DNA of 63,641 nt from an uncultured Bacillota bacterium (GCA_947650795.1 CANSWR010000002.1:1-63641); one strand, 5' to 3'. Shown: positions 624-63,641, numbered from the stretch's first letter. The notes: generated from the letters alone by a model not told the origin. Made by a program: numbers and translations.

Positions 624-810
624 TTTTACTACCTCCTTTTAAAATTAATTCTACTTCTTCCATCGTTCTATCAACAATTGCTAGTGATAAGTTCCATATA
701 AATGACATACTAAATAATCCTAAAATTGTTCCAAATTGATAAATAAAATCCTTAATCCATATATCAGCAATTACACAAATACATATAACTAAATAATAAG
801 ATACAACCAT
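610..810 (-). CDS. small hydrophobic (about 2 TM) protein, overlaps the Fic start
   Basis: ORF track, 66 aa. Two hydrophobic stretches. Its end overlaps the Fic start codon, which suggests translational coupling. No recognisable family. Confidence 0.4.
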   Translation of the reverse strand: MVVSYYLVICICVIADIWIKDFIYQFGTILGLFSMSFIWNLSLAIVDRTMEEVELILKGGSKNGNK

Positions 811-858
811 AAAGAATATAAATTCTGATGATTTTCTAGTTAAATTTTATCATCACTT

Positions 859-1053
859 TTATCTATTTTCTGCTTTTCCCTCTTTAGACCACTTTGTGAT
901 AAACATTAAATTACCCAACATGTTTAATACTAAAGATACCCAAAAGAAATTTGTACTATTATTTATATCAAAACAAACTAAAATAAATGAAACAACTAAT
1001 AATACTAAACTAACAACTTGAATCTTGTTTAACCTTCTTAAACTATTTACCAT
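859..1053 (-). CDS. small membrane protein
   Basis: ORF track 859..1074. I prefer the ATG at 1053-1051, which overlaps the XRE stop (AATGGTAAATAG). The protein MVNSLRRLNKIQVVSLVLLVVSFILV... has two hydrophobic segments. Confidence 0.45.
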   Translation of the reverse strand: MVNSLRRLNKIQVVSLVLLVVSFILVCFDINNSTNFFWVSLVLNMLGNLMFITKWSKEGKAENR

Positions 1054-1534
1054 TTCTAAACTCCTCAATAGCATTACTATTTAATAATTTCATAATTTCT
1101 TCGTTTGTTTCATTTTGGTATTCAAGATCCTCTATTGTTTCTAATAATACATTTTTCTTTTCTTCATCTGCATCAAGAGATGCTTTTTTTAATGATTCAA
1201 TAACTACTTTATTATTTATAGTAGAACTTTCTATACTATCCATTGCTTCTTTTAGTTCTTTTCCTCTTAATTTAGAGTAGTGTTCAAGTAAATATGGATT
1301 AAGTGGACTAACCTGTGCTCCTAAACCAGAAGCATACATTAAATCATTATAATTAACACCAATATACTTACTTATCTTTCTAAGTAGTTTAGGATTAGGT
1401 ACTTCACGTTCTCCTGATTCTATTCTTGATATATCAGAAGAACTTATATTTGCAAGTGCTGCCAGTTGACGCATTGACAAATTATTTTCTTCTCTACCTT
1501 GTTGAATTAATTCTCCAACTTTAGTTTTAGCCAT
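1043..1534 (-). CDS. XRE-family helix-turn-helix transcriptional regulator with a C-terminal helical domain
   Basis: The N-terminus is a typical Cro/C1 HTH: GELIQQGREENNLSMRQLAALANISSSDISRIESGEREVP. It has its own promoter and RBS. Confidence 0.85.
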   Translation of the reverse strand: MAKTKVGELIQQGREENNLSMRQLAALANISSSDISRIESGEREVPNPKLLRKISKYIGVNYNDLMYASGLGAQVSPLNPYLLEHYSKLRGKELKEAMDSIESSTINNKVVIESLKKASLDADEEKKNVLLETIEDLEYQNETNEEIMKLLNSNAIEEFRNGK

Positions 1535-1557
1535 GCTTTCAAGTCCTTTCTGAATTG

Positions 1558-1657
1558 ATTATAACATATACATTGCTTTTTTGCAACATTTTTAATTTAT
1601 TTTTGCAAAAAAGGTTGATATCTGAATTTATGATGCTATAACTATGTTAAATTGCAA
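1558..1657 (-). promoter_or_regulatory. sigmaA-type promoter of the XRE operon plus three TTGCAA palindromes (candidate operators)
   Basis: On the minus strand: TTGCAA (1586-1581), a 17-nt spacer, then TATAAT (1563-1558), about 24 nt before the ATG. Further TTGCAA palindromes lie at 1603-1608 (within TTTTGCAAAA) and at 1652-1657. Confidence 0.55.
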
Positions 1658-1721
1658 CAGAAAAAACAATTTGAAGCAAAAATGAAATAAGGTAAACAAA
1701 TGAAAACTTAAAAAGTTTAAA

Positions 1722-1752
1722 TAAAATTCCACTAGCGTAACTAGTGGTTTTA
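1722..1752 (-). terminator. rho-independent terminator after the RT gene (hairpin usable on both strands)
   Basis: CCACTAG (1729-1735) / CTAGTGG (1741-1747), a 7-bp stem with a 5-nt loop, flanked by T/A runs on both sides. Confidence 0.6.
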
Positions 1753-1852
1753 CATTTTCGCCTATAAGGCTATATTACTGGCATACACTAAAGTACCCTG
1801 TCGACTGCCAAAAGCATTCTTTACTTGCTACTCTTTAAATGGGTCAAAATCT

Positions 1853-2896
1853 TCAAATGTCATTTGTTGACTTAATTGATCTTCTTTTAGTTGATTTGCT
1901 ATATATTCTTTTATTTTCTTCGTATTCTTTCCTACTGTGTCTACATAGTATCCTGTTCTTTAATTCTCTAACACACTTTAAATAATTCCTAAACTCTAAA
2001 GAATTATTTATATTATTTACAAACATAATTTTTCCATATAAACTATTTATATAATCTTCTTTTCTTTCCGTATAACCAATTCTGATAAGATGGCCATCAA
2101 TTCCAAACTTCTTAATATAATAAATTTCTTGTCTAATCTTATCTTTATACTTTCTTGAAACTTGAACTTTTTCATTAACAACAAGTCCTGTCACACTTTG
2201 CTTTTTTGACTTACATACTACATTTATCTTACGCTTATTAAGAGAAAAACCTAAAAGATTTAACTGACTATTAACAAATCTTATAACCTCTCCCACATTA
2301 AAACTTCCAGAAAAAGTCATATCATCTGAATATCTAGTATATGCTATACTTCTTTCTTCACAAAATCTTCCAACAGTTTGATCAAAATCTCTCATAATTA
2401 AATTAGAAATATAAGAACTAGTAGGCGCGCCTTGAGGAATATAACCATAGTAAGTACAAAGAGTTGTTAATAAAACTCCTATATTCTTAGGATAATACTC
2501 TATTGAAAAACAATATTTGTACACTTGATTAAAATTTATACTATCAAAAAAATTTTTAATATCTAACTTTAAAATAATCTCTTTATTAACATGTGGCAAA
2601 GCATTTTCTTTCAAACTAATACCACTTACATATGCCTTAGCATACTTACTTACATTTCTCTCACTAAGAACATTCTTAAGTATTTGCCTTTGAATATATT
2701 TAAGAGTTTCACTAGGCTCATAAATAGTCCTATATCCACCACTCCTCTTTCTAACTTTAAAAACTTTATAATTATTTTCTACATTATTACTTATTGAATA
2801 AAGTTCTTTTATATATTCATTATCACTCTTATTATCAATTAAAAAAAGAGATAATAAGAAATCATTACATTGTTTTTTAGTAACATATTTCCACAT
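1853..2896 (-). CDS. retron-type reverse transcriptase
   Basis: ORF track 1853..2914. I prefer the ATG at 2896 (MWKYVTKK), preceded by GGAGGG. Motifs seen: YRTIYEPSETLKYIQRQIL; the retron-typical NAxxH (ENALPH); LDIKNFFDSI; QGAPTSSYISN; YTRYSDDMTFS; and the retron-specific VTG (SVTGLVVNEK). Confidence 0.85.
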   Translation of the reverse strand: MWKYVTKKQCNDFLLSLFLIDNKSDNEYIKELYSISNNVENNYKVFKVRKRSGGYRTIYEPSETLKYIQRQILKNVLSERNVSKYAKAYVSGISLKENALPHVNKEIILKLDIKNFFDSINFNQVYKYCFSIEYYPKNIGVLLTTLCTYYGYIPQGAPTSSYISNLIMRDFDQTVGRFCEERSIAYTRYSDDMTFSGSFNVGEVIRFVNSQLNLLGFSLNKRKINVVCKSKKQSVTGLVVNEKVQVSRKYKDKIRQEIYYIKKFGIDGHLIRIGYTERKEDYINSLYGKIMFVNNINNSLEFRNYLKCVRELKNRILCRHSRKEYEENKRIYSKSTKRRSIKSTNDI

Positions 2897-2907
2897 ATTA
2901 TCCCTCC

Positions 2908-3076
2908 AAAGCAATACACAAAATATTATAATGTGAAAATGTACGGTTGTGCGTATAGCACATTGCTACATGTAGTGTAGAAAAGTACATTGTAAAATTA
3001 TAATTAATATCATATCTAATACTAGTCCTTTAGTGACTCACTAAAGTAGAGTAAAAAACTCATACACTATTGCTCA
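2908..3076 (-). ncRNA. candidate retron msr/msd non-coding RNA (boundaries approximate)
   Basis: This is the 211-nt gap between the 164-aa ORF and the RT. On the minus strand, GAGCAATA (about 3075-3068) can pair with TATTGCTT (about 2916-2909) next to the RT RBS, as a1/a2 repeats do, and a G follows a1. Internal hairpins are CTTTAGTGA/TCACTAAAG (3028-3046) and TGTGC/GCACA (2948-2962). Assignment is by position and dyads only. Confidence 0.35.
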
Positions 3077-3107
3077 CATAAATAATATCATAATTTAATA
3101 CTTTAAT

Positions 3108-43554: not shown

Positions 43555-45777
43555 TTATTTTTCTACTGTTCTAGTAACACCTGTAGGTGTCCATCCTTCT
43601 AAAGTCTTATATTCGCTCCATTTATATCTATATGAAGTTACTTTATTAACTGTTGCTTTAGCATCATATGAATTAGAAACAGTGCCTAAATAACATTTAT
43701 GGTCATTCTTTAATTCTCCTCCATTTGGACAAGTATAAACTGTCTTTCCATCTGTCTTAGAAGAATTATAATTATAACTATTATTAATTACACATCTTCC
43801 ACCACTTAAGTTTCCTCCATTTGGACAATACTGTGTACCAGCACTTTGTGAAGCATCATATACTTGAGTTTCAGTAACTACACATGTTGATCCACTTAAA
43901 GTTCCTCCATTCGGACAACTATATTTTCCTGGAGTAGCAGTTGCCTTATAATTATAAGAATCATCATAATAGCATCTTCCACCACTTAAGTTTCCTCCAT
44001 TTGGACAATAATAACTTCCTTGGCCTCTACTTGCAGTATATGTATAAGAATCGTCATAATAACATCTATTACCAGATAATTGACCACCATTTGGACAATA
44101 TTTACTTCCTTGTGACATTGAAGCTGCATATGAACTTGAACTTGTCCCTACACAGACAGAACCACTTCTATTATAACCACTTGGACAACTATAAGAAGCT
44201 GTAGCTGCCACTGTTTGAGTACTTGAAGTTGTAGTACATTTACCATTTACTGGATTTGCACCATTCGAGCAATAATAATTTGGTGTTGCACTAACTGTTT
44301 TACTACTTGTAGAACCTGATTTAACACACATCTTAGTACTATTATTTAGATTTCCACCACTTGGACAACTATATTCATAAACTGAATATCTCCAAGTATA
44401 ATAATAAACTGGATTTGGACATTGTAATTTATTACTACATGTATATCTTGCTTCTTTTCTAACTAAAGCATAACCACTTCCCATATTCGAATTAGTATTA
44501 GTTATAGTTTTACTAACTGCTTTTCTAGTAGCAGCATAACTACTTCCAGGTGTAGTTGTAGTTATAGTACATGTAGAAGTACTTACTGTTCTTCCATCTG
44601 GACAAGTATAATTTCTTATCAACGCATTTGTACTAGATGTACTTCCAGGTTTAACACAAATTGAACCACTCTTACTATAACCACTAGGACATGTATATAC
44701 AACTGTAGCAGCAATTGTTGAAGTTGATGAAGTATAACATCTAGAACCGTTTAAAGTTCCTCCATTTGGACAATAATAACTTCCAGAACTTGTTGAAGCT
44801 ATATAAGAGTTTTCTCTAGTTACATAACATACACCATCTCTTAAAGTTCCTCCATTTGGACAATAATATTCTCCAACACTAAGTGAAGCAACATAAGAAT
44901 TTTCTCTAGTTACATAACATACACCATCTCTTAAAGTTCCTCCATTTGGACAACTATATGTTGTAGCTGCTTGACTAGCTGCATAAGTACTTGTTCCATT
45001 TTTATAACATTTACCATTATTTAAAGTTCCTCCATTTGGACAATAATAACTTCCTGTACTAGTTGAAGGATTATAATATTCCATCTTAGTAACATAACAT
45101 ATACCGTCTTTTAATTCTCCTCCATCTGGACAATACTCAGTCCCTTTAGTAGTAGTCTGTGTTGCTTTATAGCTGTTAGTACTGTATATATAACATTTAC
45201 CATTACTTAATACTCCTCCATCTGGACAACTATAAACAGTATTTTCTCCCGTTACTTCTTGTTTAAACTGATATTCAAGTGATAATTGTTTTTCAGGTTC
45301 TTTAAAACACTCTTCTTTCTCACAATAAGTATAACATCCTAAAGTTTTCTCAACAAAATTCTTCTCACTTGGACAAACTAAGTTAACTTTTAAAGTAAAA
45401 TCATTTTTATTTTTTCTAACTTGTACATAAGAATTTAATGTATCACATTCTTCACCATTTTCATCTACGAACGGTAATATCAAATTCTTATTAATCATTT
45501 CTTGAAGTGTTATCTCTGCTGTATCACCAATATTCTTTGGTAATCTCTCATCTGTATAATAACTCTCTGCTGCATCTTGCATGTACTTAATATTTTCTCT
45601 AAACACATTACTATAAAAAGGTTTCATATTAGGTACTTTTGGAAATAACCATAATAATAACAATAAGAATATTACCAAAAATACAGCTTTAATTATTACA
45701 TCTTTCCAATCAAATCTTCTATTTCTAGGTTCTCTCTCATCCCATTTAAAACCAGGATTTTTTTCACTACTATACAT
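43555..45777 (-). CDS. membrane-anchored protein with about 16 tandem Cys-pair repeats (Y-x-C-P-x-G-G-x-L-x-x-G-x-C-Y)
   Basis: An N-terminal TM helix (VIIKAVFLVIFLLLLLWLF), then repeats such as YYCPNGGTLNNGKCY, YSCPNGGTLRDGVCY and YSCPSGYNRSGSVCV. Confidence 0.75.
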   Translation of the reverse strand: MYSSEKNPGFKWDEREPRNRRFDWKDVIIKAVFLVIFLLLLLWLFPKVPNMKPFYSNVFRENIKYMQDAAESYYTDERLPKNIGDTAEITLQEMINKNLILPFVDENGEECDTLNSYVQVRKNKNDFTLKVNLVCPSEKNFVEKTLGCYTYCEKEECFKEPEKQLSLEYQFKQEVTGENTVYSCPDGGVLSNGKCYIYSTNSYKATQTTTKGTEYCPDGGELKDGICYVTKMEYYNPSTSTGSYYCPNGGTLNNGKCYKNGTSTYAASQAATTYSCPNGGTLRDGVCYVTRENSYVASLSVGEYYCPNGGTLRDGVCYVTRENSYIASTSSGSYYCPNGGTLNGSRCYTSSTSTIAATVVYTCPSGYSKSGSICVKPGSTSSTNALIRNYTCPDGRTVSTSTCTITTTTPGSSYAATRKAVSKTITNTNSNMGSGYALVRKEARYTCSNKLQCPNPVYYYTWRYSVYEYSCPSGGNLNNSTKMCVKSGSTSSKTVSATPNYYCSNGANPVNGKCTTTSSTQTVAATASYSCPSGYNRSGSVCVGTSSSSYAASMSQGSKYCPNGGQLSGNRCYYDDSYTYTASRGQGSYYCPNGGNLSGGRCYYDDSYNYKATATPGKYSCPNGGTLSGSTCVVTETQVYDASQSAGTQYCPNGGNLSGGRCVINNSYNYNSSKTDGKTVYTCPNGGELKNDHKCYLGTVSNSYDAKATVNKVTSYRYKWSEYKTLEGWTPTGVTRTVEK
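44810..44953 (-). repeat. near-perfect 90-nt tandem duplication inside the Cys-repeat gene
   Basis: The 54 nt at 44810-44863 are identical to 44900-44953. Both encode RDGVCYVTRENSY...YYCPNGGTL. Confidence 0.85.
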
Positions 45778-48501: not shown

Positions 48502-50553
48502 CTACTCAGCTATCATATCTATATTTAAGTTCATTTCCTCAGATAATTCTATTCTCTTAACAATATCTTGATAACCTGTTCTACTAAATATTATATCATA
48601 ATTTCCACTTATTAAATCATTAAATTCATATTTTCCTTCTTTATCTGTTCCTTTAACATATTTCATATCTTGTTTATCTACACTTTCTATACTAACCTTC
48701 ACATTAGATAAGACTTTTCCGTTTGATTTAACAACTCCACTAAGCTTATAAGAGCCACCCTTTAAAATATTAGTCTCATAAAAAGCACTCTTAATTATAG
48801 ATATACTATTCTCACTAAGTCCAAAATTCTCTGCTGTCTTTATTACTGCAAGAGCACAGTCTTCAAAATCTGAAGTTGGTGTTAACATAAATAAAGAATT
48901 ATACCAAACTTTTGCCATCTCTTCACGACTAGAAAAAGCTTCATTTTTAAAAGTTAAATAAGCAGCATGACCTATAACTGTACTATTTGTATGTACTCCA
49001 CCATTATCATATTCATATAAACTTTTCATATCATTATCTTCTAAATACTTTAAAACTGATTTTCCATTAAGATTAGGATAATAATTTTCTCCATTTTTCT
49101 TTGATGGTTTTAAATATTTATTAGGATTAGATAAATCACTTCTTATTATACCCTCTAAAGGAGTATTATAAGCCATTACAAAACTTTTACTTTCAATAAG
49201 AAGTGCTAAGATATCACTATAAGCTTCACTTAATGCACCACTTTGATTTTCTGTAGTGTTTTTATATAACTTATCAAAATTTTCTCCTAAAGACGAAATA
49301 GTACTAACAACTCCATGAGTAAATTCATGTGCTAGCAAACTTTTATAATTACCTAAAGACTCATCATTATATGAACCTATAAAAATTTGATTAGTTAAAG
49401 GATTATAAAAAGCATTAACATCTTCTTCTCCATTCACACCTAAAAAAACACTAATCTTACTTCCATTATTATCATAAGATTTTCTACCTAAAGAATTATA
49501 ATAATAATCATAAATTTCTTCATAATTTTTCATAGTCTTAACAATATCCTTAGATAATAGAGAGCTATCACTAATTACTATTTCCCCATTTGTTATATCT
49601 CCAATAAAAATATTACCATCTTTAGAATAAAAACCATTTAATTTACTACCATCCAATATTTCCAAATTTCTAGAATTATCTAAAAAACGGTATCTTACCT
49701 TATTCTCCATAGAATCTTGATACTCATCTAAATTTATAAACTCATTACTAGATAAACCGCTTCCAGAATACTTATAATTAATATTAAAAATAATATCTTG
49801 ATCTTTATTTATTATTTCACCAGTACTACCATTTATTAAATAAGAAAATACATTCTCTCCATCTGTCGCATAAACTAAATATACAGCTAAATAATCATTT
49901 GTATAAGGCACGATTATTCTTTCTCTACTCAAAATAATAGCATCACTCATATCTTCTTTAACTTTATTAGAAACTTCATTATCTTTTAAAGTAAAATAAT
50001 TAGAAATTTTTATATTTGGTATATAATTACCTGTAATACTTAGAACTTCTCCAAATTCATTAACACTCATAACCAATTCATGACCATAAACTTTTATCTT
50101 ATTATATATTTGTTCTAAACGGTAATAAGTAATATTTTCACTTTTCTCACTACTTATATTAAATTCTTGTTTAGGATTCTCAAATTGATATAACTCACTT
50201 AAATTATCTAAAACTTCATAAACTTTGCTTTCACTATTAACTTTTTTTGAAGTAATATTACCACTTAAATATTTGGGTACATTATATTCGCCCATTACAC
50301 TTATCATTTCTTCTTTATCATTATTTAAAGTATTATCTGAAACATTCTCTTTATCTAAAGTATTAATAGTATAAAAGAAAATGCCGCCAAACAATCCTAA
50401 AAGAAACAAAAGAATTAGAAAAGAACTAACCTTACTTTTTTTCTTCTTTAAAGTTAAATCTGCTTCTATTGGATTACCAGGAGCATAAACTTTCTTTCCA
50501 CACTTAGAACAATAATCATTACTTAATTCTGTATTACAATAAGGACATCTCAT
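48502..50553 (-). CDS. M4 (thermolysin-like) metallopeptidase with an N-terminal zinc ribbon, a TM helix and a C-terminal carboxypeptidase-regulatory-like domain
   Basis: HEFTH (HExxH) plus GALSEAYSDI (the third zinc ligand, as in thermolysin GALNEAxSD). N-terminal CPYC...CSKC. Confidence 0.8.
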   Translation of the reverse strand: MRCPYCNTELSNDYCSKCGKKVYAPGNPIEADLTLKKKKSKVSSFLILLFLLGLFGGIFFYTINTLDKENVSDNTLNNDKEEMISVMGEYNVPKYLSGNITSKKVNSESKVYEVLDNLSELYQFENPKQEFNISSEKSENITYYRLEQIYNKIKVYGHELVMSVNEFGEVLSITGNYIPNIKISNYFTLKDNEVSNKVKEDMSDAIILSRERIIVPYTNDYLAVYLVYATDGENVFSYLINGSTGEIINKDQDIIFNINYKYSGSGLSSNEFINLDEYQDSMENKVRYRFLDNSRNLEILDGSKLNGFYSKDGNIFIGDITNGEIVISDSSLLSKDIVKTMKNYEEIYDYYYNSLGRKSYDNNGSKISVFLGVNGEEDVNAFYNPLTNQIFIGSYNDESLGNYKSLLAHEFTHGVVSTISSLGENFDKLYKNTTENQSGALSEAYSDILALLIESKSFVMAYNTPLEGIIRSDLSNPNKYLKPSKKNGENYYPNLNGKSVLKYLEDNDMKSLYEYDNGGVHTNSTVIGHAAYLTFKNEAFSSREEMAKVWYNSLFMLTPTSDFEDCALAVIKTAENFGLSENSISIIKSAFYETNILKGGSYKLSGVVKSNGKVLSNVKVSIESVDKQDMKYVKGTDKEGKYEFNDLISGNYDIIFSRTGYQDIVKRIELSEEMNLNIDMIAE

Positions 50554-58062: not shown

Positions 58063-58269
58063 AATTTCACTCTTCCTTTCGTTATCCCTTCCTTTTGTTT
58101 CTAAACCTTTACACCTACATAATTGTAAGCACTAGTAAAAGAAATCCACAAAAGTGCTTATTTTCTAAAGCCGAATATATTTTAACACAATATTATATGT
58201 AAAGTAAATAAAAATATTAAAAACTAAAACATGAATATAAATTAAAAAACTAATAAAAATTATTTCTTA

Positions 58270-58425
58270 TCATAAAATCAAACATGTAACAAAATAATTA
58301 GAGAAATTACTGAGACGAACGACTCCATTATTGTTGACGTCTACGTTACTCAAGTAGCCAGGATAACTAGAACCCCACGCAATGAACACGCGCGCCCAAG
58401 TGCTATCCCAAGCCCACGGACTCAT
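58270..58425 (-). CDS. array mini-ORF 1
   Basis: MSPWAWDSTWARVFIAWGSSYPGYLSNVDVNNNGVVRLSNFSNYFVTCLIL (own codon-by-codon translation). This is the leftmost unit; the conserved 3' flank is truncated after AATTTCTCT. Confidence 0.55.
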   Translation of the reverse strand: MSPWAWDSTWARVFIAWGSSYPGYLSNVDVNNNGVVRLSNFSNYFVTCLIL

Positions 58426-58574
58426 TTAAGATTTTCTACAATATCATCCTAATTTATTTAACATAATTTATAAAAAAGAAACATTCAAATATTTACTAAA
58501 CCTTAATTATAAATAATATTAATTTTTAGTCATCATGACACGGATGACATTTGTTTCTCTAACAATTTTTTCTA

Positions 58575-58748
58575 CTATAACATAATATTATGAAAAAACT
58601 TTATCAAAGAGAAATTACTGAGACGAACGACAGTTGAACCACTGTTAACGGATAAACTACCCAAGCAGCCAGGAGCAGTAGATCCGTACAAAAACAAGAC
58701 AATCGCAGTGCCAGAACTAGAGCCCCACCTGAACTGTGACGGACTCAT
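58575..58748 (-). CDS. array mini-ORF 2
   Basis: MSPSQFRWGSSSGTAIVLFLYGSTAPGCLGSLSVNSGSTVVRLSNFSLIKFFHNIML. Confidence 0.55.
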   Translation of the reverse strand: MSPSQFRWGSSSGTAIVLFLYGSTAPGCLGSLSVNSGSTVVRLSNFSLIKFFHNIML

Positions 58749-58911
58749 CAATTATTTTTTATAATATTATCCTAAATTGTTAATAACAAGAAATATTCAA
58801 TTTTTACTAATTCTTAATCATAAATGATAATAAATATCTAGTATTACAATAAGGATAATATTTGTTTCTCTAATATTTTTTACTATAATTATTATCATGA
58901 AAAATTATTAA

Positions 58912-59040
58912 CTAAGAGAAATTTGGACGAACTACTCCATTACCATGAGCGACATTTGCATTTCCAGAACGGTCAGGATAAGTAGAACCGTATAAAGTAA
59001 ATACATGTACATTAATATCTATTAATTCAAACGGACTCAT
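58912..59040 (-). CDS. array mini-ORF 3
   Basis: MSPFELIDINVHVFTLYGSTYPDRSGNANVAHGNGVVRPNFS. Confidence 0.55.
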   Translation of the reverse strand: MSPFELIDINVHVFTLYGSTYPDRSGNANVAHGNGVVRPNFS

Positions 59041-59231
59041 TTAAAAATTTTTATAATATCATCCTAATTTATTTAACATAATTAATAAAAAAGAAACATT
59101 CAAATATTTACTAAATCTTAATTATAAATTATATAATTTTTAGTTATCATAACACGGATGACATTTGTTTCTCTTAAAACTTTTTCTACTATAACATAAT
59201 ATTATGAAAAAACTTTATCAAAGAGAAATTA

Positions 59232-59342
59232 CTAACGAACGACTCCAATATCGCCTAAATTCGCATTATTCAAACGGCCAGGATTTGTGCAACTAACATC
59301 GAACACGTACGCTCTAGTGCCATTCCAATAGTACGGACTCAT
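59232..59342 (-). CDS. array mini-ORF 4
   Basis: MSPYYWNGTRAYVFDVSCTNPGRLNNANLGDIGVVR, with the stop directly after GVVR. Confidence 0.55.
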   Translation of the reverse strand: MSPYYWNGTRAYVFDVSCTNPGRLNNANLGDIGVVR

Positions 59343-59501
59343 ATTCAATTTTACTATAATATCATCCTAATATATAAATATCATTTATTAATGAAGAATA
59401 TATAGTTATTTACTAACTCTTAATTATAAATAATATAACCTTTAGTCCTTATAATCTGGACAATATTTGTTTCTCTTAAATCTTTTCTACTATAAACCAA
59501 A

Positions 59502-59648
59502 TTATGAAAAAACACTATCAAAGAGAAATTTCTGACGAACAACTCCACTAACATCTTGAACACCAGCACCAGCCAAGTGGCCAGAATAAGTAGAACCACG
59601 AACCTGATACACGTCCGCCCTTGTACTATTCCAACCATACGGACTCAT
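59502..59648 (-). CDS. array mini-ORF 5
   Basis: MSPYGWNSTRADVYQVRGSTYSGHLAGAGVQDVSGVVRQKFLFDSVFS. The ORF-track entry 59420..59638 is an off-frame reading of the same unit. Confidence 0.55.
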   Translation of the reverse strand: MSPYGWNSTRADVYQVRGSTYSGHLAGAGVQDVSGVVRQKFLFDSVFS

Positions 59649-59760
59649 AATAACTTTACACAATATTATCCTCAACTAAAATTATTTTGAATGATAACTA
59701 TTTAGATATATAACAAGAATAATATTTGTTTCTCTTAAATTTTTTCTACTATAATTTACA

Positions 59761-59910
59761 TTATGAAAAAACTTTATTAAAGAGAAATTTTTGACGAACA
59801 ACTCCAGCAGTACTATAATCAACATTTGCATACCATAGTTGTCCTGATTTACTAGAGCCATGCACATTGAACATGTGCGCATATCCATCAAGCCAACCCC
59901 ACGGACTCAT
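59761..59910 (-). CDS. array mini-ORF 6
   Basis: MSPWGWLDGYAHMFNVHGSSKSGQLWYANVDYSTAGVVRQKFLFNKVFS. The ORF-track entry 59682..59891 is off-frame. Confidence 0.55.
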   Translation of the reverse strand: MSPWGWLDGYAHMFNVHGSSKSGQLWYANVDYSTAGVVRQKFLFNKVFS

Positions 59911-60000
59911 GCTTTTAAATCTTTTAAATACATTATTTATAATAATTTCAAATAAAAAATTACCAATATTATAATCTAAATCATTTATCTATAGATTACA

Positions 60001-60198
60001 TTACAAATAATGTTTGTTTCTCTTAAAACTTTTTCTACTATAACTCAAATTATGAAAAAGTAGTTTTAAAGAGAAATTACTAAGACGAACGACTCCATCA
60101 GTATTATAGATGTGAGTACCAGTTAAATGGCCAGGATTACTAGAACCTTTCACAAGAAACCCAGCTGAAAAAACGTTATTCCATGTCCACGGACTCAT
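60001..60198 (-). CDS. array mini-ORF 7
   Basis: ORF track: MSPWTWNNVFSAGFLVKGSSNPGHLTGTHIYNTDGVVRLSNFSLKLLFHNLSYSRKSFKRNKHYL. The tail after GVVR is read-through of the conserved flank. Confidence 0.55.
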   Translation of the reverse strand: MSPWTWNNVFSAGFLVKGSSNPGHLTGTHIYNTDGVVRLSNFSLKLLFHNLSYSRKSFKRNKHYL

Positions 60199-60289
60199 TA
60201 TTTTAATATTACTTACTGATTATCAAAATATTATTTTCATAAATTTAATAATAAATATTAACAATGTTTTTTAATCTATAATTTTTTAT

Positions 60290-60430
60290 GAATAATATTT
60301 TGTTTCTCTAATAATTTTTATAGATAAATTATTAGAAGAAATACTCTAATACTAAAAGTATAAATATCATTTAAGTAACTAGAACAATTTAAACAAAGCA
60401 ATATAACACACGCCTCAATGTCCACTGAAA
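60290..60430 (-). pseudogene. decayed array unit (7b)
   Basis: It keeps AATATTTTGTTTCTCTAATAATTTTTATAG and remnants of the core (..AACTAGAACAATTTAAACAAAGCAATATAACACACGCC..). It has lost the ORF, both anchors and the GC richness. Confidence 0.6.
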
Positions 60431-60572
60431 CAGAATCAATTAATTAATAGTATCTATTTTTACATTTTCCTATTAAAGTACTAACATAAAAATATGATTA
60501 TATCATTTTAGCATAAAAACTTTTAAATTAACATAGACAATATTTGTTTCTCTAATATTTTTTCTACTATAA

Positions 60573-60725
60573 TTATAAATTATGAAAAAAACTATATTTA
60601 AAGAGAAATTTTGGACGAACGACTCCATTAGTGCTGTAGACGTACGCGTAGCTCAACTGGCCAGGACTATTAGAACTCACACAGAACACGAGTGCCCCTA
60701 TGCCATCACGAATATACGGACTCAT
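60573..60725 (-). CDS. array mini-ORF 8
   Basis: MSPYIRDGIGALVFCVSSNSPGQLSYAYVYSTNGVVRPKFLFKYSFFHNL. Confidence 0.55.
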   Translation of the reverse strand: MSPYIRDGIGALVFCVSSNSPGQLSYAYVYSTNGVVRPKFLFKYSFFHNL

Positions 60726-60983
60726 AAAGTGCAATTAACTTATTTTCAATATTATCCACATTAATTATAATATAAATTAATTAAAACTTCTATTTCTTAA
60801 CAACATAATCACTCTTTAAGTTTCAAAAAAAATATATATTCTTAAAATTCTACTATTTCAGAATAATCAAAAAATAATATAAAATATTCCTCCAAAAGTA
60901 CTAATTTTATATTAAAAAACTTTTTAGTCTAAAGACAAAGAATAATATTTGTTTCTCTAATATCTTTTCTACTATAATATAAA

Positions 60984-61136
60984 TTATGAGAAGATGCTTT
61001 TTAAAGAGAAATTACTAGGACGAACAACTCCACGAGTATCATGAACACCAGCGTGACTCAAGAGACCAGGAAGTTCAAACCCCCACACATTGAACACGCC
61101 AGTCCATACACCATGCCAAATATACGGACTCGGCAA
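60984..61136 (-). CDS. array mini-ORF 9 (ATG replaced; possible TTG start one codon upstream)
   Basis: TAA-TTG-CCG-AGT-CCG... gives (M)PSPYIWHGVWTGVFNVWGFELPGLLSHAGVHDTRGVVRPSNFSLKSIFS. Confidence 0.45.
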   Translation of the reverse strand: MPSPYIWHGVWTGVFNVWGFELPGLLSHAGVHDTRGVVRPSNFSLKSIFS

Positions 61137-61162: not shown

Positions 61163-61375
61163 CTAAAAAAAGTTTCGGATAATATTTGTTTCTCTTATAC
61201 TTTTTCTACCATAATCTAAATTATGAAAAATTATTTTTAAAGAGAAATTACTAAGACGAACAACTCCACTAGTGACATGAACTCCTGAGTAGTACAATCG
61301 GCCAGGATTACCAGAACCAATCACAGTGAACACAAACACATAGCCATTAATCCAACAATGCGGACTCATACACAC
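61163..61375 (-). CDS. array mini-ORF 10
   Basis: ORF track: MCMSPHCWINGYVFVFTVIGSGNPGRLYYSGVHVTSGVVRLSNFSLKIIFHNLDYGRKSIRETNIIRNFF. The family-typical ATG (MSP) is at 61369. Confidence 0.55.
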   Translation of the reverse strand: MCMSPHCWINGYVFVFTVIGSGNPGRLYYSGVHVTSGVVRLSNFSLKIIFHNLDYGRKSIRETNIIRNFF

Positions 61376-61480
61376 TTTTATTAAATATTATTACAAAAAT
61401 AATGTCTAAAAATATCTTAATATAATATTTTTTTAATATACTATTTTAAATAATATTTGTTTCTCTTAAAACTTTTTCTA

Positions 61481-61654
61481 CTATAACATAATATTATGAA
61501 AAAACTTTATCAAAGAGAAATTACTAAGACGAACGACTCCATTCTCATTAATGTACTTCCAATTCAAGCGGCCAGCACTACTGGAAGTGCCTACCCAAAA
61601 CACAGCAGTACTTACATAACTATCACCATACCAGTAAAAGTAATACGGACTCAT
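61481..61654 (-). CDS. array mini-ORF 11
   Basis: MSPYYFYWYGDSYVSTAVFWVGTSSSAGRLNWKYINENGVVRLSNFSLIKFFHNIML. The track ORF starts 9 codons further upstream, at 61681. Confidence 0.55.
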   Translation of the reverse strand: MSPYYFYWYGDSYVSTAVFWVGTSSSAGRLNWKYINENGVVRLSNFSLIKFFHNIML

Positions 61655-61784
61655 ATCCAAATTCTTTCTAATATCATTCAATTTAATTTTTAACTGATAA
61701 AATTATCATTAATTAAATTACCTAGTTTTTTAAAACTATGAATAATATTTGTTTCTCTTAAAACTTTTTCTACTATAATTTACA

Positions 61785-61925
61785 TTATGAAAAAACTTTA
61801 TTAAAGAGAAATTTCGGACGAACGACTCCATCTGAATCACTAACATATGCGAAGGCCAAACGACCAGCATCTCCAGAACTCACAATGAACACAGCCGCCA
61901 AAGTAGCAAACCGAGACGGACTCAT
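61785..61925 (-). CDS. array mini-ORF 12
   Basis: MSPSRFATLAAVFIVSSGDAGRLAFAYVSDSDGVVRPKFLFNKVFS. Confidence 0.55.
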   Translation of the reverse strand: MSPSRFATLAAVFIVSSGDAGRLAFAYVSDSDGVVRPKFLFNKVFS

Positions 61926-62002
61926 TATTTTTGATTATCAAAATATAATATTTATAAATTTACTAATATGTATTAATAATGTATTTTCCATCTATAATAT
62001 TT

Positions 62003-62115
62003 AATAAATAATATTTTATTATTGAAATCACTAAGAAATATTCTAATATTAAAAGTTTAAATATCATAGTACAATTTGAACATAGCACATAGAACATACG
62101 CCTTGCAATAGCAAT
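62003..62115 (-). pseudogene. decayed array unit (12b), homologous to unit 7b
   Basis: ..ACAATTTGAACATAGCACATAGAACATACGCCTTGCAATAG.. aligns with unit 7b at roughly four of five positions by eye. Confidence 0.6.
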
Positions 62116-62165
62116 ATACAACGAAAAATTTTTTAATTAATAATACTTATTTTTACATTTTCCCA

Positions 62166-62468
62166 TTAAAATACTAATATAAAAATAAGCTTATCTAATT
62201 TTAGCATAAAAACTTTTAACTTAAAATAAAAATATATCAATTTCTTTAAAGTACAAATCATCTTAAACAATATTTGTTTCTCTAATATTTTTTCTACTAT
62301 AAAATTAATTATGAAAAAAACTATATTTAAAGAGAAATTTCTGAGACGAACAACTCCATTAGTGCCATAGTCAACATTTACATTCCACAACTGGCCAGGA
62401 CTACCAGAACCATGCACATCTAACATAAATACACGATTGTTAATATTATTCCAACAATACGGACTCAT
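62166..62468 (-). CDS. array mini-ORF 13 (long read-through tail)
   Basis: ORF track: MSPYCWNNINNRVFMLDVHGSGSPGQLWNVNVDYGTNGVVRLRNFSL... Only the first 41 codons belong to the family. The rest is flank and spacer that happens to stay open. Confidence 0.5.
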   Translation of the reverse strand: MSPYCWNNINNRVFMLDVHGSGSPGQLWNVNVDYGTNGVVRLRNFSLNIVFFIINFIVEKILEKQILFKMICTLKKLIYFYFKLKVFMLKLDKLIFILVF

Positions 62469-62623
62469 TTAAAATTTTACTAAAATATCATCTTAATTTA
62501 ATTAACATCATTTATTAATAAAGAATATTCAATTATTTACTAACTCTCAATTATAAATAATATAATTTTAGCCATTATAGCATGGACAATATTTATTTCT
62601 CTTAAACTTTTTCTACTATAAAA

Positions 62624-62776
62624 TTAATTATGAAAAAACTTTATTAAAGAGAAATTTCCAGAACGAACGACTCCATCAATGTCATGGACGCTCGTATAAC
62701 TCAATTGGCCGGGACCATATGAATCCCACACAATGAACACGCGTGCAAAGCCACTCCAAAACTCATGCGGACTCAT
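62624..62776 (-). CDS. array mini-ORF 14
   Basis: MSPHEFWSGFARVFIVWDSYGPGQLSYTSVHDIDGVVRSGNFSLIKFFHN. Confidence 0.55.
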   Translation of the reverse strand: MSPHEFWSGFARVFIVWDSYGPGQLSYTSVHDIDGVVRSGNFSLIKFFHN

Positions 62777-62914
62777 TTATATTTTTTACAATATCATCTT
62801 AATTCAATTATTTACTTACTCTTAATTATAAATAATATAATTTTAGTCATTATGACATAGACAATATTTGTTTCTCTATAAATTTTTCTACTATAAAATT
62901 AATTATGAAAAACT

Positions 62915-63046
62915 TTATAAAGAGAAATTTCTAGGACGAACGACTCCGCGATCATCTTGAACGCCTGCATAACCCAACAGGCCAGGACCACCAGAACTCA
63001 CAATGAACACGAGCGCGTTACCACTCCAAAACTCATGCGGACTCAT
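62915..63046 (-). CDS. array mini-ORF 15
   Basis: MSPHEFWSGNALVFIVSSGGPGLLGYAGVQDDRGVVRPRNFSL. Confidence 0.55.
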   Translation of the reverse strand: MSPHEFWSGNALVFIVSSGGPGLLGYAGVQDDRGVVRPRNFSL

Positions 63047-63232
63047 TTATATTTTTTACAATATCATCTTAATTTAATTAATATCATTTATCAATAAAGA
63101 ATATTCAATTATTTACTAACTCTCAATTATAAATAATATAATTTTTAGTCATTATGACATAGACAATATTTGTTTCTCTATAAATTTTTTCTACTATAAA
63201 ATTAATTATGAAAAAACTTTATTAAAGAGAAA

Positions 63233-63358
63233 TTACTGACGAACTACTCCATTACCATTGCTGACACTCCCGCCCCACAACTGGCCAGGATAATCAGAAC
63301 CAAATACATGGAACAGAATCGCACCGTCATCAATAATACCAGAACGATACGGACTCAA
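63233..63358 (-). CDS. array mini-ORF 16 (TTG in place of ATG)
   Basis: (M)SPYRSGIIDDGAILFHVFGSDYPGQLWGGSVSNGNGVVRQ. This is the rightmost unit, i.e. the first one on the minus strand. Confidence 0.45.
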   Translation of the reverse strand: MSPYRSGIIDDGAILFHVFGSDYPGQLWGGSVSNGNGVVRQ

Positions 63359-63513: not shown

Positions 63514-63552
63514 AACAGAAAAACCGACGACAAGCATAGCTTGCCGTCGGTA
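63514..63552 (-). terminator. strong rho-independent terminator upstream (minus-strand sense) of the array
   Basis: ACCGACGGCAAGC / GCTTGTCGTCGGT (13-bp stem, 4-nt loop), followed on the minus strand by TTTTTCTGTTG. Confidence 0.8.
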
Positions 63553-63641
63553 TGGTTAGCCCTCGAAATGGTTTTCTCGGTCTGTGTACCCCCTTATTTA
63601 CCTTGCTTCTTATCCATTCATCAACGTATATGGACTTGCTC
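63553..63641 (-). other. GC-rich, probably structured RNA segment running off the right edge (unassigned)
   Basis: Minus strand: GAGCAAGTCCATATACGTTGATGAATGGATAAGAAGCAAGGTAAATAAGGGGGTACACAGACCGAGAAAACCATTTCGAGGGCTAACCAT. GC is well above local coding DNA. There is a TCCAT...ATGGA hairpin, and it ends in the terminator. Confidence 0.25.

Follow-up and report, generated by a model that had tools for sequence, protein, structure and literature searches.

Diversity-generating retroelements (DGRs), as described in the surveys of these elements, use one invariant Asn-rich template (TR) to randomise one or a few variable regions (VRs), and the surveys also record DGRs with as many as eight target genes, and different TRs in the metagenome of a single human host. 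[quoted passage not shown] DUF6273 is C-type-lectin-like (PMC10743442) and the variable regions of DGRs sit at its C-terminus (PMC10743442, PMC11792537). Another kind of described system comprises Neisseria pilE/pilS, Borrelia vlsE/vls and the donor sites of Treponema pallidum tprK, in which partial copies in the same orientation lie beside an expression gene. A search of the full-text literature and of the main DGR surveys yielded no description of multiple or tandem TRs at one DGR locus. The window analysed here, a stretch of 63,641 nt from an uncultured Bacillota bacterium, contains 16 TR-type units in tandem, and the interpretation that we favour, to which we assign a probability of about one half, is that they are an array of pre-diversified donor cassettes, derived from DGR TRs and serving the adjacent target gene, and are not genes for proteins. 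The locus resembles the silent-cassette systems in its same-orientation partial copies beside an expression gene, its framework and hypervariable positions, its stable in-frame donors and the conserved repeat that follows each copy.

All 16 units are located on the minus strand and their bodies span positions 63358-58315 of the window, whereas a canonical DGR has one TR. Each unit is composed of an AT-rich 5' flank, a body of 108-126 nt whose first bases are ATGAGTCCG (M-S-P) and whose last bases are GGAGTYGTTCGT (G-V-V-R), and a TR-side 3' element in which an IMH*-like AATTTCTCT, a hairpin CATAAY-loop-RTTATRG, TAGA and AGAGAAACAA follow each other in this order. About 15 nt 5' of the cassette body there is a conserved, -10-like ATnATATT, and the predicted cassette promoters are consensus-like only. 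Following the minus strand, the units with their bodies and TR-type spacers are u1 (63152-63358; body 63358-63239, with a TTG start and reading LSPYRSG...GVVR; spacer 63250-63152), u2 (62850-63046; body 63046-62936, spacer 62947-62850), u3 (62575-62776; body 62776-62663, spacer 62674-62575), u4 (62261-62468; body 62468-62346, spacer 62357-62261), u5 (61735-61925; body 61925-61818, spacer 61829-61735), u6 (61448-61654; body 61654-61529, spacer 61540-61448), u7 (61172-61369; body 61369-61256, spacer 61267-61172), u8 (60935-61133; body 61133-61020, in which CCG replaces ATG; spacer 61031-60935), u9 (60530-60725; body 60725-60615, spacer 60626-60530), u10 (59998-60198; body 60198-60085, spacer 60096-59998), u11 (59711-59910; body 59910-59794, spacer 59805-59711), u12 (59451-59648; body 59648-59535, spacer 59546-59451), u13 (59148-59342; body 59342-59235, stop 59234-59232, spacer 59246-59148), u14 (58846-59040; body 59040-58927, spacer 58938-58846), u15 (58533-58748; body 58748-58623, ending in STVVR; spacer 58631-58533) and u16 (58264-58425; body 58425-58315). 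In u16, the last unit, the 3' spacer is degenerate and keeps only AATTTCTCT (spacer model E 1.4e-5). Beyond the end of the array, after u16, lies rpsB (58062-57115), and not avd or an RT gene as in canonical DGRs. An Rfam scan of the array found no family at E≤1.

Two gaps between units are extra-long (60199-60530 and 61926-62260) and have in common a 96-nt repeat (60440-60535 versus 62133-62228, 88% identical), and one of them contains a partial spacer remnant (60338-60290, E 0.16). To the eye these long gaps resemble decayed cassettes, but their alignment to cassette bodies was no better than that of shuffled controls.

At the edge of the window, the 3' end of a full-length target gene (63610-63641, minus strand; ..G-A-S-P-Y-T-L-M-N-G-stop) was recognised by its sequence match to relatives. 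Its tail DNA, GAGCAAGTCCATATACGTTGAT, agrees at every position, over 22 nt, with the end of a target-gene fragment in the close relative L016, the tail peptide resembles the tails of P0022, P0044 and P0047 (..SDPYTLTM.), and GGGGGTACACAG, which follows the stop codon, also occurs in L010. A strong intrinsic terminator of the target gene (63523-63551, minus strand; 13-bp stem with 8 GC pairs, T-run) separates it from u1, and the array is therefore placed directly downstream of the target in the order target 3' end, terminator, cassette, which is the order of target, terminator and TR known from canonical DGRs. A full-length protein with the same framework, foreseen in a preliminary description of this DNA as a possible expression locus, thus has its counterpart in known homologues and in the gene that ends here directly upstream of the array. 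As the variable region of the target lies beyond window position 63641, flank homology was judged against the target genes of relatives, and by this comparison cassettes and target share, outside the body, some 9-10 nt on the 5' side (ATGAGTCCG) and some 14-20 nt on the 3' side. The target IMH sequence is GTTCGTCCAGTAGTGTCTCTGAAA. When the VRs of the related target genes L010 and L016, both from other strains, were compared with the 16 cassettes, no close donor was found and at least 35 differences, gaps included, were counted. The target-gene fragments that were looked up are located on short contigs without arrays, and no matching record was found for the u1 sequence.

Among the matches to a profile made from the 16 cassette peptides there are Asn-rich sequences, for example P0053 (..SPNNWNGSNANVFNVNGSSNPGNLNNTNVNNTNGVRP..). 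Canonical DGR organisation is seen in relatives. L015 has the classic layout with a target 3' end containing the VR, a TR, an accessory ORF of 140 aa and an Avd-like start, and L025 is a complete DGR with target, TR, Avd and an RT carrying IGNMTSQ and YMDD. All differences between TR and VR are at TR adenines, in L015 (13/13) as well as in L025 (16/16), and in both loci the segment corresponding to the cassettes is the variable region, as the preliminary description had supposed from its position in the fold. The TRs of L014, L015 and L025 are followed by AATTTCTCT, the hairpin CATAAY-loop-RTTATRG with TAGA and, 8-10 nt on, AGAGAAACAA, as the cassettes of the window are, and the block of hairpin, TAGA and AGAGAAACAA was detected in L014 and L015 by nhmmer with E 0.001 and 0.016. 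A search of all JGI metagenome contigs (241 million records) with the flank pattern GTTCGT-N3-9-AATTTCTCT-N38-58-AGAGAAACAA returned a single match, the TR-spacer of L025. The closing pair of the hairpin shows a UA/CG exchange in three loci, and covariation is weak because most positions are invariant. On the VR side, the sequence continues instead as coding sequence, with GCAGTTTCTCTGAAA in L025 and GTAGTGTCTCTGAAA in L010/L016. The TR of L025 starts one codon before S-P, as the cassettes do, and in L015 homology between TR and VR begins two to three codons before S-P. From the TR-side flank blocks and the TR-like start boundary it follows that the cassettes are TR-type units, and this explains why they look like ORFs starting with Met. 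The locus therefore has in common with canonical DGRs the 5' and 3' boundaries of the TR, the small hairpin and a TR-side 3' element distinct from the VR side.

Scanning viral contigs with the spacer pattern gave 8 chance matches inside coding sequence and 0 beside a TR, and among the matches listed for a scan of genome contigs with the cassette DNA pattern there were only single chance ones in unrelated taxa. A reading of the plus strand, with a promoter-like TTGTTT-N18-TATAAT and an ORF MKKLY.. in the spacer, was also considered and was rejected, as antisense frames are interrupted by stops in most units and the promoter-like motifs are the conserved TR-spacer blocks that are also found in canonical DGRs. 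In the L025 RT (766-2340, minus strand), the C-terminal domain is homologous to a separate ORF of 140-156 aa in L014 (592-1062) and L015 (748-1170) and has, like this ORF, a weak match to MutS_I; it looks like an accessory module which is either fused to the RT or free-standing within the DGR family of L014, L015 and L025.

The length of the cassette bodies is a multiple of 3 in 16/16 cases (36-42 codons), frame 1 is free of stops in 16/16, and every other frame contains stops in most units. From the alignment, the consensus of the 16 peptides is MSPxxWxxxxAxVFxVxGSxxPGxLxxAxVxxxxGVVR, in which S2, P3 and V-V-R are invariant, and M1, both named residues of PGxL besides its P and the first residue of GVVR reach a conservation of at least 90%. 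This bears out the framework/hypervariable layout reported earlier for the mini-ORFs, including u13, which is exactly as described (59342-59232, minus strand; MSPYYWNGTRAYVFDVSCTNPGRLNNANLGDIGVVR-stop), although the block W-[NDS]-[SG]-T, which had been listed among the fixed positions, is not common to all 16 units. When the 16-peptide profile was run against the six-frame translation of the window, only those 16 were found (E 1e-14 to 2e-21; next best E about 2), and the same search revealed no Asn-rich master TR in the window. Mean entropies at the three codon positions are 1.4/1.5/1.2 bits in the 21 variable columns versus 0.4/0.3/0.7 bits in the 17 framework columns, and the two hypervariable stretches that had been noticed are thus real.

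The codons in the 21 hypervariable columns are NNY in 77% of cases. At their positions 1 and 2 any base occurs, A being the commonest (34% and 39%), whereas at the third position A accounts for 10% versus 37% in the genes of the window and C for 17% versus 2%. Only 12.5% of the residues in these columns are K, E, Q, M or W, and one hypervariable column is CNN. In framework codons, A occupies position 2 in 1%. The A content of the cassettes has a mean of 19% (range 13-27) and is similar to that of VRs (16-18%), compared to 28-31% in TRs, and the number of AAY codons is 0-7 per cassette versus 12-15 in TRs. This composition carries the AAY-to-NNY signature left by adenine mutagenesis in DGRs, a feature that the cassettes share with the canonical loci; unlike the canonical TR, however, the bodies of the window are not Asn-rich, differ in length among themselves (36-42 codons) and are already mutagenised. 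A single TR cannot explain the whole footprint, because there are TGG codons, some changes at third positions and in-frame differences in length. With their adenine-mutagenesis footprint, that is NNY codons and a VR-like A content, the bodies would represent frozen, pre-diversified variants of a binding tip. At non-A sites of framework codons, 18 synonymous and 14 non-synonymous distinct variants were counted where 28% synonymous would be expected (p=0.0008), and the substitution pattern read in this way shows that reading frame and framework codons are under constraint. The GC content of the bodies is 35-53% in a window of 27% GC. Mean pairwise identity is 0.82 for the 3' flanks versus 0.62 for the bodies, and in u13-u15 it is 0.93 versus 0.55.

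The 16 peptides did not match any Pfam-A family in hmmscan even at E≤10, and a PDB sequence search with cassette peptides gave nothing meaningful. A profile search of 1.8 billion representative proteins yielded 103 matches, mostly similar metagenome mini-ORFs, and about 15 of the 103 are full-length proteins of 200-900 aa. In most full-length homologues the cassette module is located about 30 residues before the C-terminus (P0022, E 4e-11), and in two-domain homologues the best module match is at the end of the first domain, some proteins matching twice. The context of the module in homologues is ...GLMTADEV..AGG...AYYYLN..GGS.TG..WWWT-MSP....GVVR-PVISLKS....G.GT...PY.., from which it can be deduced that the 'start' of the cassettes corresponds to the conserved Met of WWTMSP and that the PVISLK codons are the counterpart of the conserved DNA AATTTCTCTTTAA that comes after GVVR. 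P0047 matches PF19789 (DUF6273) with 5.4e-6 and 26.8 bits versus a cut-off of 23.5, a profile match that concerns the parent domain and not the 38-aa cassettes, and PF19789 is precomputed on P0023, P0066, P0110 and other homologues, while Pfam detection misses most full-length homologues. The P0022 C-terminal domain, as modelled by AlphaFold (pLDDT 87, pTM 0.88), was matched by Foldseek to the IgA peptidase of Thomasclavelia ramosa, 9qa6, with E 3.4e-7, probability 1.00 and 306 aligned columns, and the N-terminal domain of this peptidase (residues 31-322) is DUF6273 (PMC12402451). By profile and by predicted structure, the parent domain is thus DUF6273-like, and the cassettes match the last ~38 residues of this predicted C-type-lectin-like domain at the C-terminus of large, putatively secreted proteins. 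Target family and last ~38-residue segment are the same as in the canonical DUF6273 DGRs, and a target with its VR at the C-terminal end of a C-type-lectin-like domain, a feature of DGRs, is seen here in the full-length homologues.

The preliminary description had likened the terminal segment to DUF1566/FISUMP-type domains. DUF1566/Lcl and Fib_succ_major do follow a similar logic in their C-terminal motifs (aromatic-W..., A.V.F, G, VR near the end) and have the same general role as DGR tips, but neither has a profile match to the cassettes, which are not members of these families. A Pfam scan of seven full-length homologues found no DUF1566, and with the P0022 domain model the Lcl C-terminal domain (DUF1566) 8q4e_A was reached by Foldseek only with a non-significant E of 3.1 (47 aligned columns, rmsd 3.5); C-type lectin matches of the same model were not significant either (E>1). 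In view of the ties to DUF6273 and the non-significant Lcl match, the assignment to DUF1566/FISUMP is unsupported, whereas the proposal of a C-terminal ligand-binding tip of a lectin-like fold was right in kind, and the structure prediction that had been suggested leads to the DUF6273 protein 9qa6. Foldseek with full-length models is uninformative on the tip, because matches, the TasA fibre among them, are dominated by the N-terminal beta-sandwich. The N-termini of the homologues look like a SipW/TasA-type signal, read from its motif, followed by this beta-sandwich. The abundant 814-aa homologues were considered as hypervariable proteins and dismissed, most of them being 96-99% identical (one outlier 73%) with a module that varies at essentially one position.

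Gene callers have predicted mini-proteins of this type in many metagenomes, and the 16 units might accordingly be independently expressed mini-proteins of 36-42 aa with variable tails, for example secreted peptides or fragments complementing a truncated lectin domain. Their ORFs are open, begin with ATG or TTG in 15/16 cases (non-ATG starts occurring in u1 with TTG and u8 with CCG), have the -10-like motif upstream and encode constrained framework residues. However, no Shine-Dalgarno sequence is placed close enough to the start, the apparent start roughly coincides with the beginning of canonical TRs, one to three codons ahead of SP, and is CCG in u8, and a stop follows GVVR directly only in u13, the other units reading on for 1-59 codons into DNA-conserved flank in three different frames, which would give C-terminal tails of 0-59 extra residues. 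The earlier statement that GVVR stands close to the stop therefore holds for u13 and u1, but in the other units the frame continues for 4 to 59 codons. A piece of 38 residues, comprising the last strands of a domain of ~290 aa, would by inference be unlikely to fold alone, and the Pfam and PDB sequence searches remained without a match. Of all the interpretations we regard this one as the least probable. The suggestion of stand-alone or donor copies has thus survived in its second half, since TR-type flanks best support donors.

Strain comparison made use of contigs from other samples that encode an identical RpsB, of which seven, short and broken inside the array, were among the matches listed. 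In the sequence upstream of rpsB, four of them do not differ from the window for up to 1155 nt, and another departs from it at a few single positions and lacks 30 nt of spacer. The identical strain is carried by samples ERZ14425196, ERZ14425192, SRR15510230 and SRR30951158. Against window positions 58600-59700, two further contigs show shorter arrays with the same bodies. In L031 (1-100) the u6 body is joined to the u15 spacer, followed by u16, and u7-u15 are missing, and L032 (1-400) contains u12, u13 with a 34-nt internal deletion, and u16; these shorter arrays can be attributed to spacers that are nearly identical and have recombined unequally. For 12 of the 16 bodies, a counterpart differing at 0-3 residues is present among metagenome proteins. 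Bodies that are identical or nearly so across samples indicate a stable repertoire and not sites of ongoing hypermutation. The same body is found with different linker or spacer sequences after GVVR in different samples (P0003, P0005 and P0012 versus u10; P0016 versus u11; P0001 versus u3), suggesting that bodies and flanks may have separate histories and that bodies may be copied between units.

A recipient in BPP-1 needs an IMH with an inverted repeat behind it, and 5' homology of at least 8 bp (PMC3240598). These rules fit the cassettes, which have a GC-richer 3' end, an inverted repeat after it and 5' homology of 9 nt, so that they might equally well be recipients. Were they recipients only, that is non-coding or mini 'variable repeats' which are still mutagenised by a DGR elsewhere, their VR-like composition and NNY footprint would be expected. 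Against this speak the bodies, for which four other samples show no difference (up to 1155 nt) and a fifth almost none, the differences in length between cassettes, which are impossible from one TR, the flanks, which are TR-type and not VR-type, and a master TR that is absent from the window, and we consider a purely recipient role to be highly improbable.

Using the L025 RT and Avd and the L015 accessory protein as tblastn queries, no DGR RT, Avd or accessory gene was detected in the 63.6-kb window (E>0.02). The only RT in the window is a retron RT located 55 kb from the array (1853-2914, minus strand; Pfam RVT_1 1.8e-20, PADLOC RT_Ec107-like 4e-121), with an HTH protein encoded downstream (1043-1534, minus strand) and a non-coding stretch of ~190 nt upstream (2915-3100) that is a possible msr/msd site. 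This retron is probably an anti-phage element unrelated to the array, and its RT, which belongs to a clear retron clade and lies 55 kb away, is an unlikely partner enzyme.

A different array with at least 13 units and other bodies was found in L007 (1-3600), where it ends beside prs, which means that the architecture is not unique to the locus of the window; some of its units look frameshifted or truncated. Sample ERZ14425196 yielded both L007 and a contig identical to the window, at similar coverage (3.5x versus 3.9x), and the genome may therefore carry two arrays. L009 is listed with L007 and L008 as a second-array locus. In L008 (1939-2112) the array begins beside a divergent Peptidase_C39_2/C70 gene, without an adjacent target.

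A machinery that is absent from the window, bodies that are static across samples, arrays that lose units, a last unit u16 with a degenerate spacer, the loss of ATG in u1 and u8 and the damaged appearance of some L007 units would all be expected if the array were a relic, formed by tandem duplication of an ancestral TR-spacer unit whose copies were then rewritten from mutagenised cDNA while a DGR was active, inert since its RT was lost and now shrinking by recombination. Against an inert array speak 16/16 bodies that are in frame and stop-free, the synonymous excess in framework codons, bodies that hold 35-53% GC in a 27% GC genome, spacer elements that are near-invariant and a second array (L007) of at least 13 units with different bodies. 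This explanation therefore appears unlikely to us, though it deserves more weight than a role as recipients only.

The same-orientation tandem array beside a full-length gene, with framework and hypervariable layout and stable, in-frame copies, might also be read as a set of silent donors that convert the neighbouring expression gene by a RecA-type process without an RT, on the model of Neisseria pilS/pilE or Borrelia vls, and there are sub-families with common 3' halves but unlike 5' halves (e.g. u4, u11, P0026, P0027) that would fit such exchanges. Flanking homology of ~10-20 nt is too short for efficient RecA recombination, and the flanks that cassettes share with relatives' targets are of just this size (about 9-10 nt and 14-20 nt), in contrast to the extended homology to the expression locus in silent-cassette systems. 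Moreover, gene conversion leaves no role for a strongly conserved TR-type spacer common to canonical DGRs. Adjacency and in-frame copies, as in the pilS/vls layout, are present, yet there is a -10-like motif in each unit and the array in L008 has no adjacent target. RecA-type conversion is thus improbable, more so than a relic. Because each unit, unlike a silent cassette, has kept the retroelement RNA module, that is the TR-side spacer, together with a promoter-like motif, an RNA/cDNA route of the DGR type is most likely for the donors, rather than gene conversion from DNA to DNA.

For the favoured interpretation as TR-derived donors, we infer a sequence of steps in which each cassette would be transcribed as a TR-spacer RNA, this RNA would be copied by a DGR reverse transcriptase/Avd encoded elsewhere in the genome, and the resulting cDNA would replace the variable region of the adjacent target gene. 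In this manner the lectin-like tip could be switched among 16 stored specificities, and the remaining adenines could be mutagenised further. A more far-reaching version, which we put forward tentatively and consider less probable than the donor function itself, is a DGR archive that is both written and read: TR-type units would have been overwritten with successful adenine-mutagenised variants and kept under selection as heritable alternative templates, and RT/Avd from elsewhere would reinstall any of at least 16 specificities in the adjacent surface protein.

If the donor interpretation is true, 16 template-type units would represent a second mode of DGR function in which earlier variants are stored and reused, and retroelement hypermutation would be linked with the logic of antigenic variation by silent cassettes. 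One spacer RNA module placed on many templates would also provide natural examples useful for DGR-based directed evolution, and dozens of 'small protein' families called from such arrays in gut metagenomes are probably not proteins.

Elsewhere in the window, an ORF of 740 aa (43555-45777, minus strand) contains 90-bp tandem repeats at 43953-44132 and 44751-45135 with a Cys-rich motif ..YYCPNGG.LSG..C.., and matches no Pfam family with confidence, the only match being a sub-threshold one to a zinc ribbon. Among several genes for surface or secreted proteins nearby, positions 48502-50553 (minus strand) encode a secreted M4 (thermolysin-like) metallopeptidase with a C-terminal CarboxypepD_reg domain.
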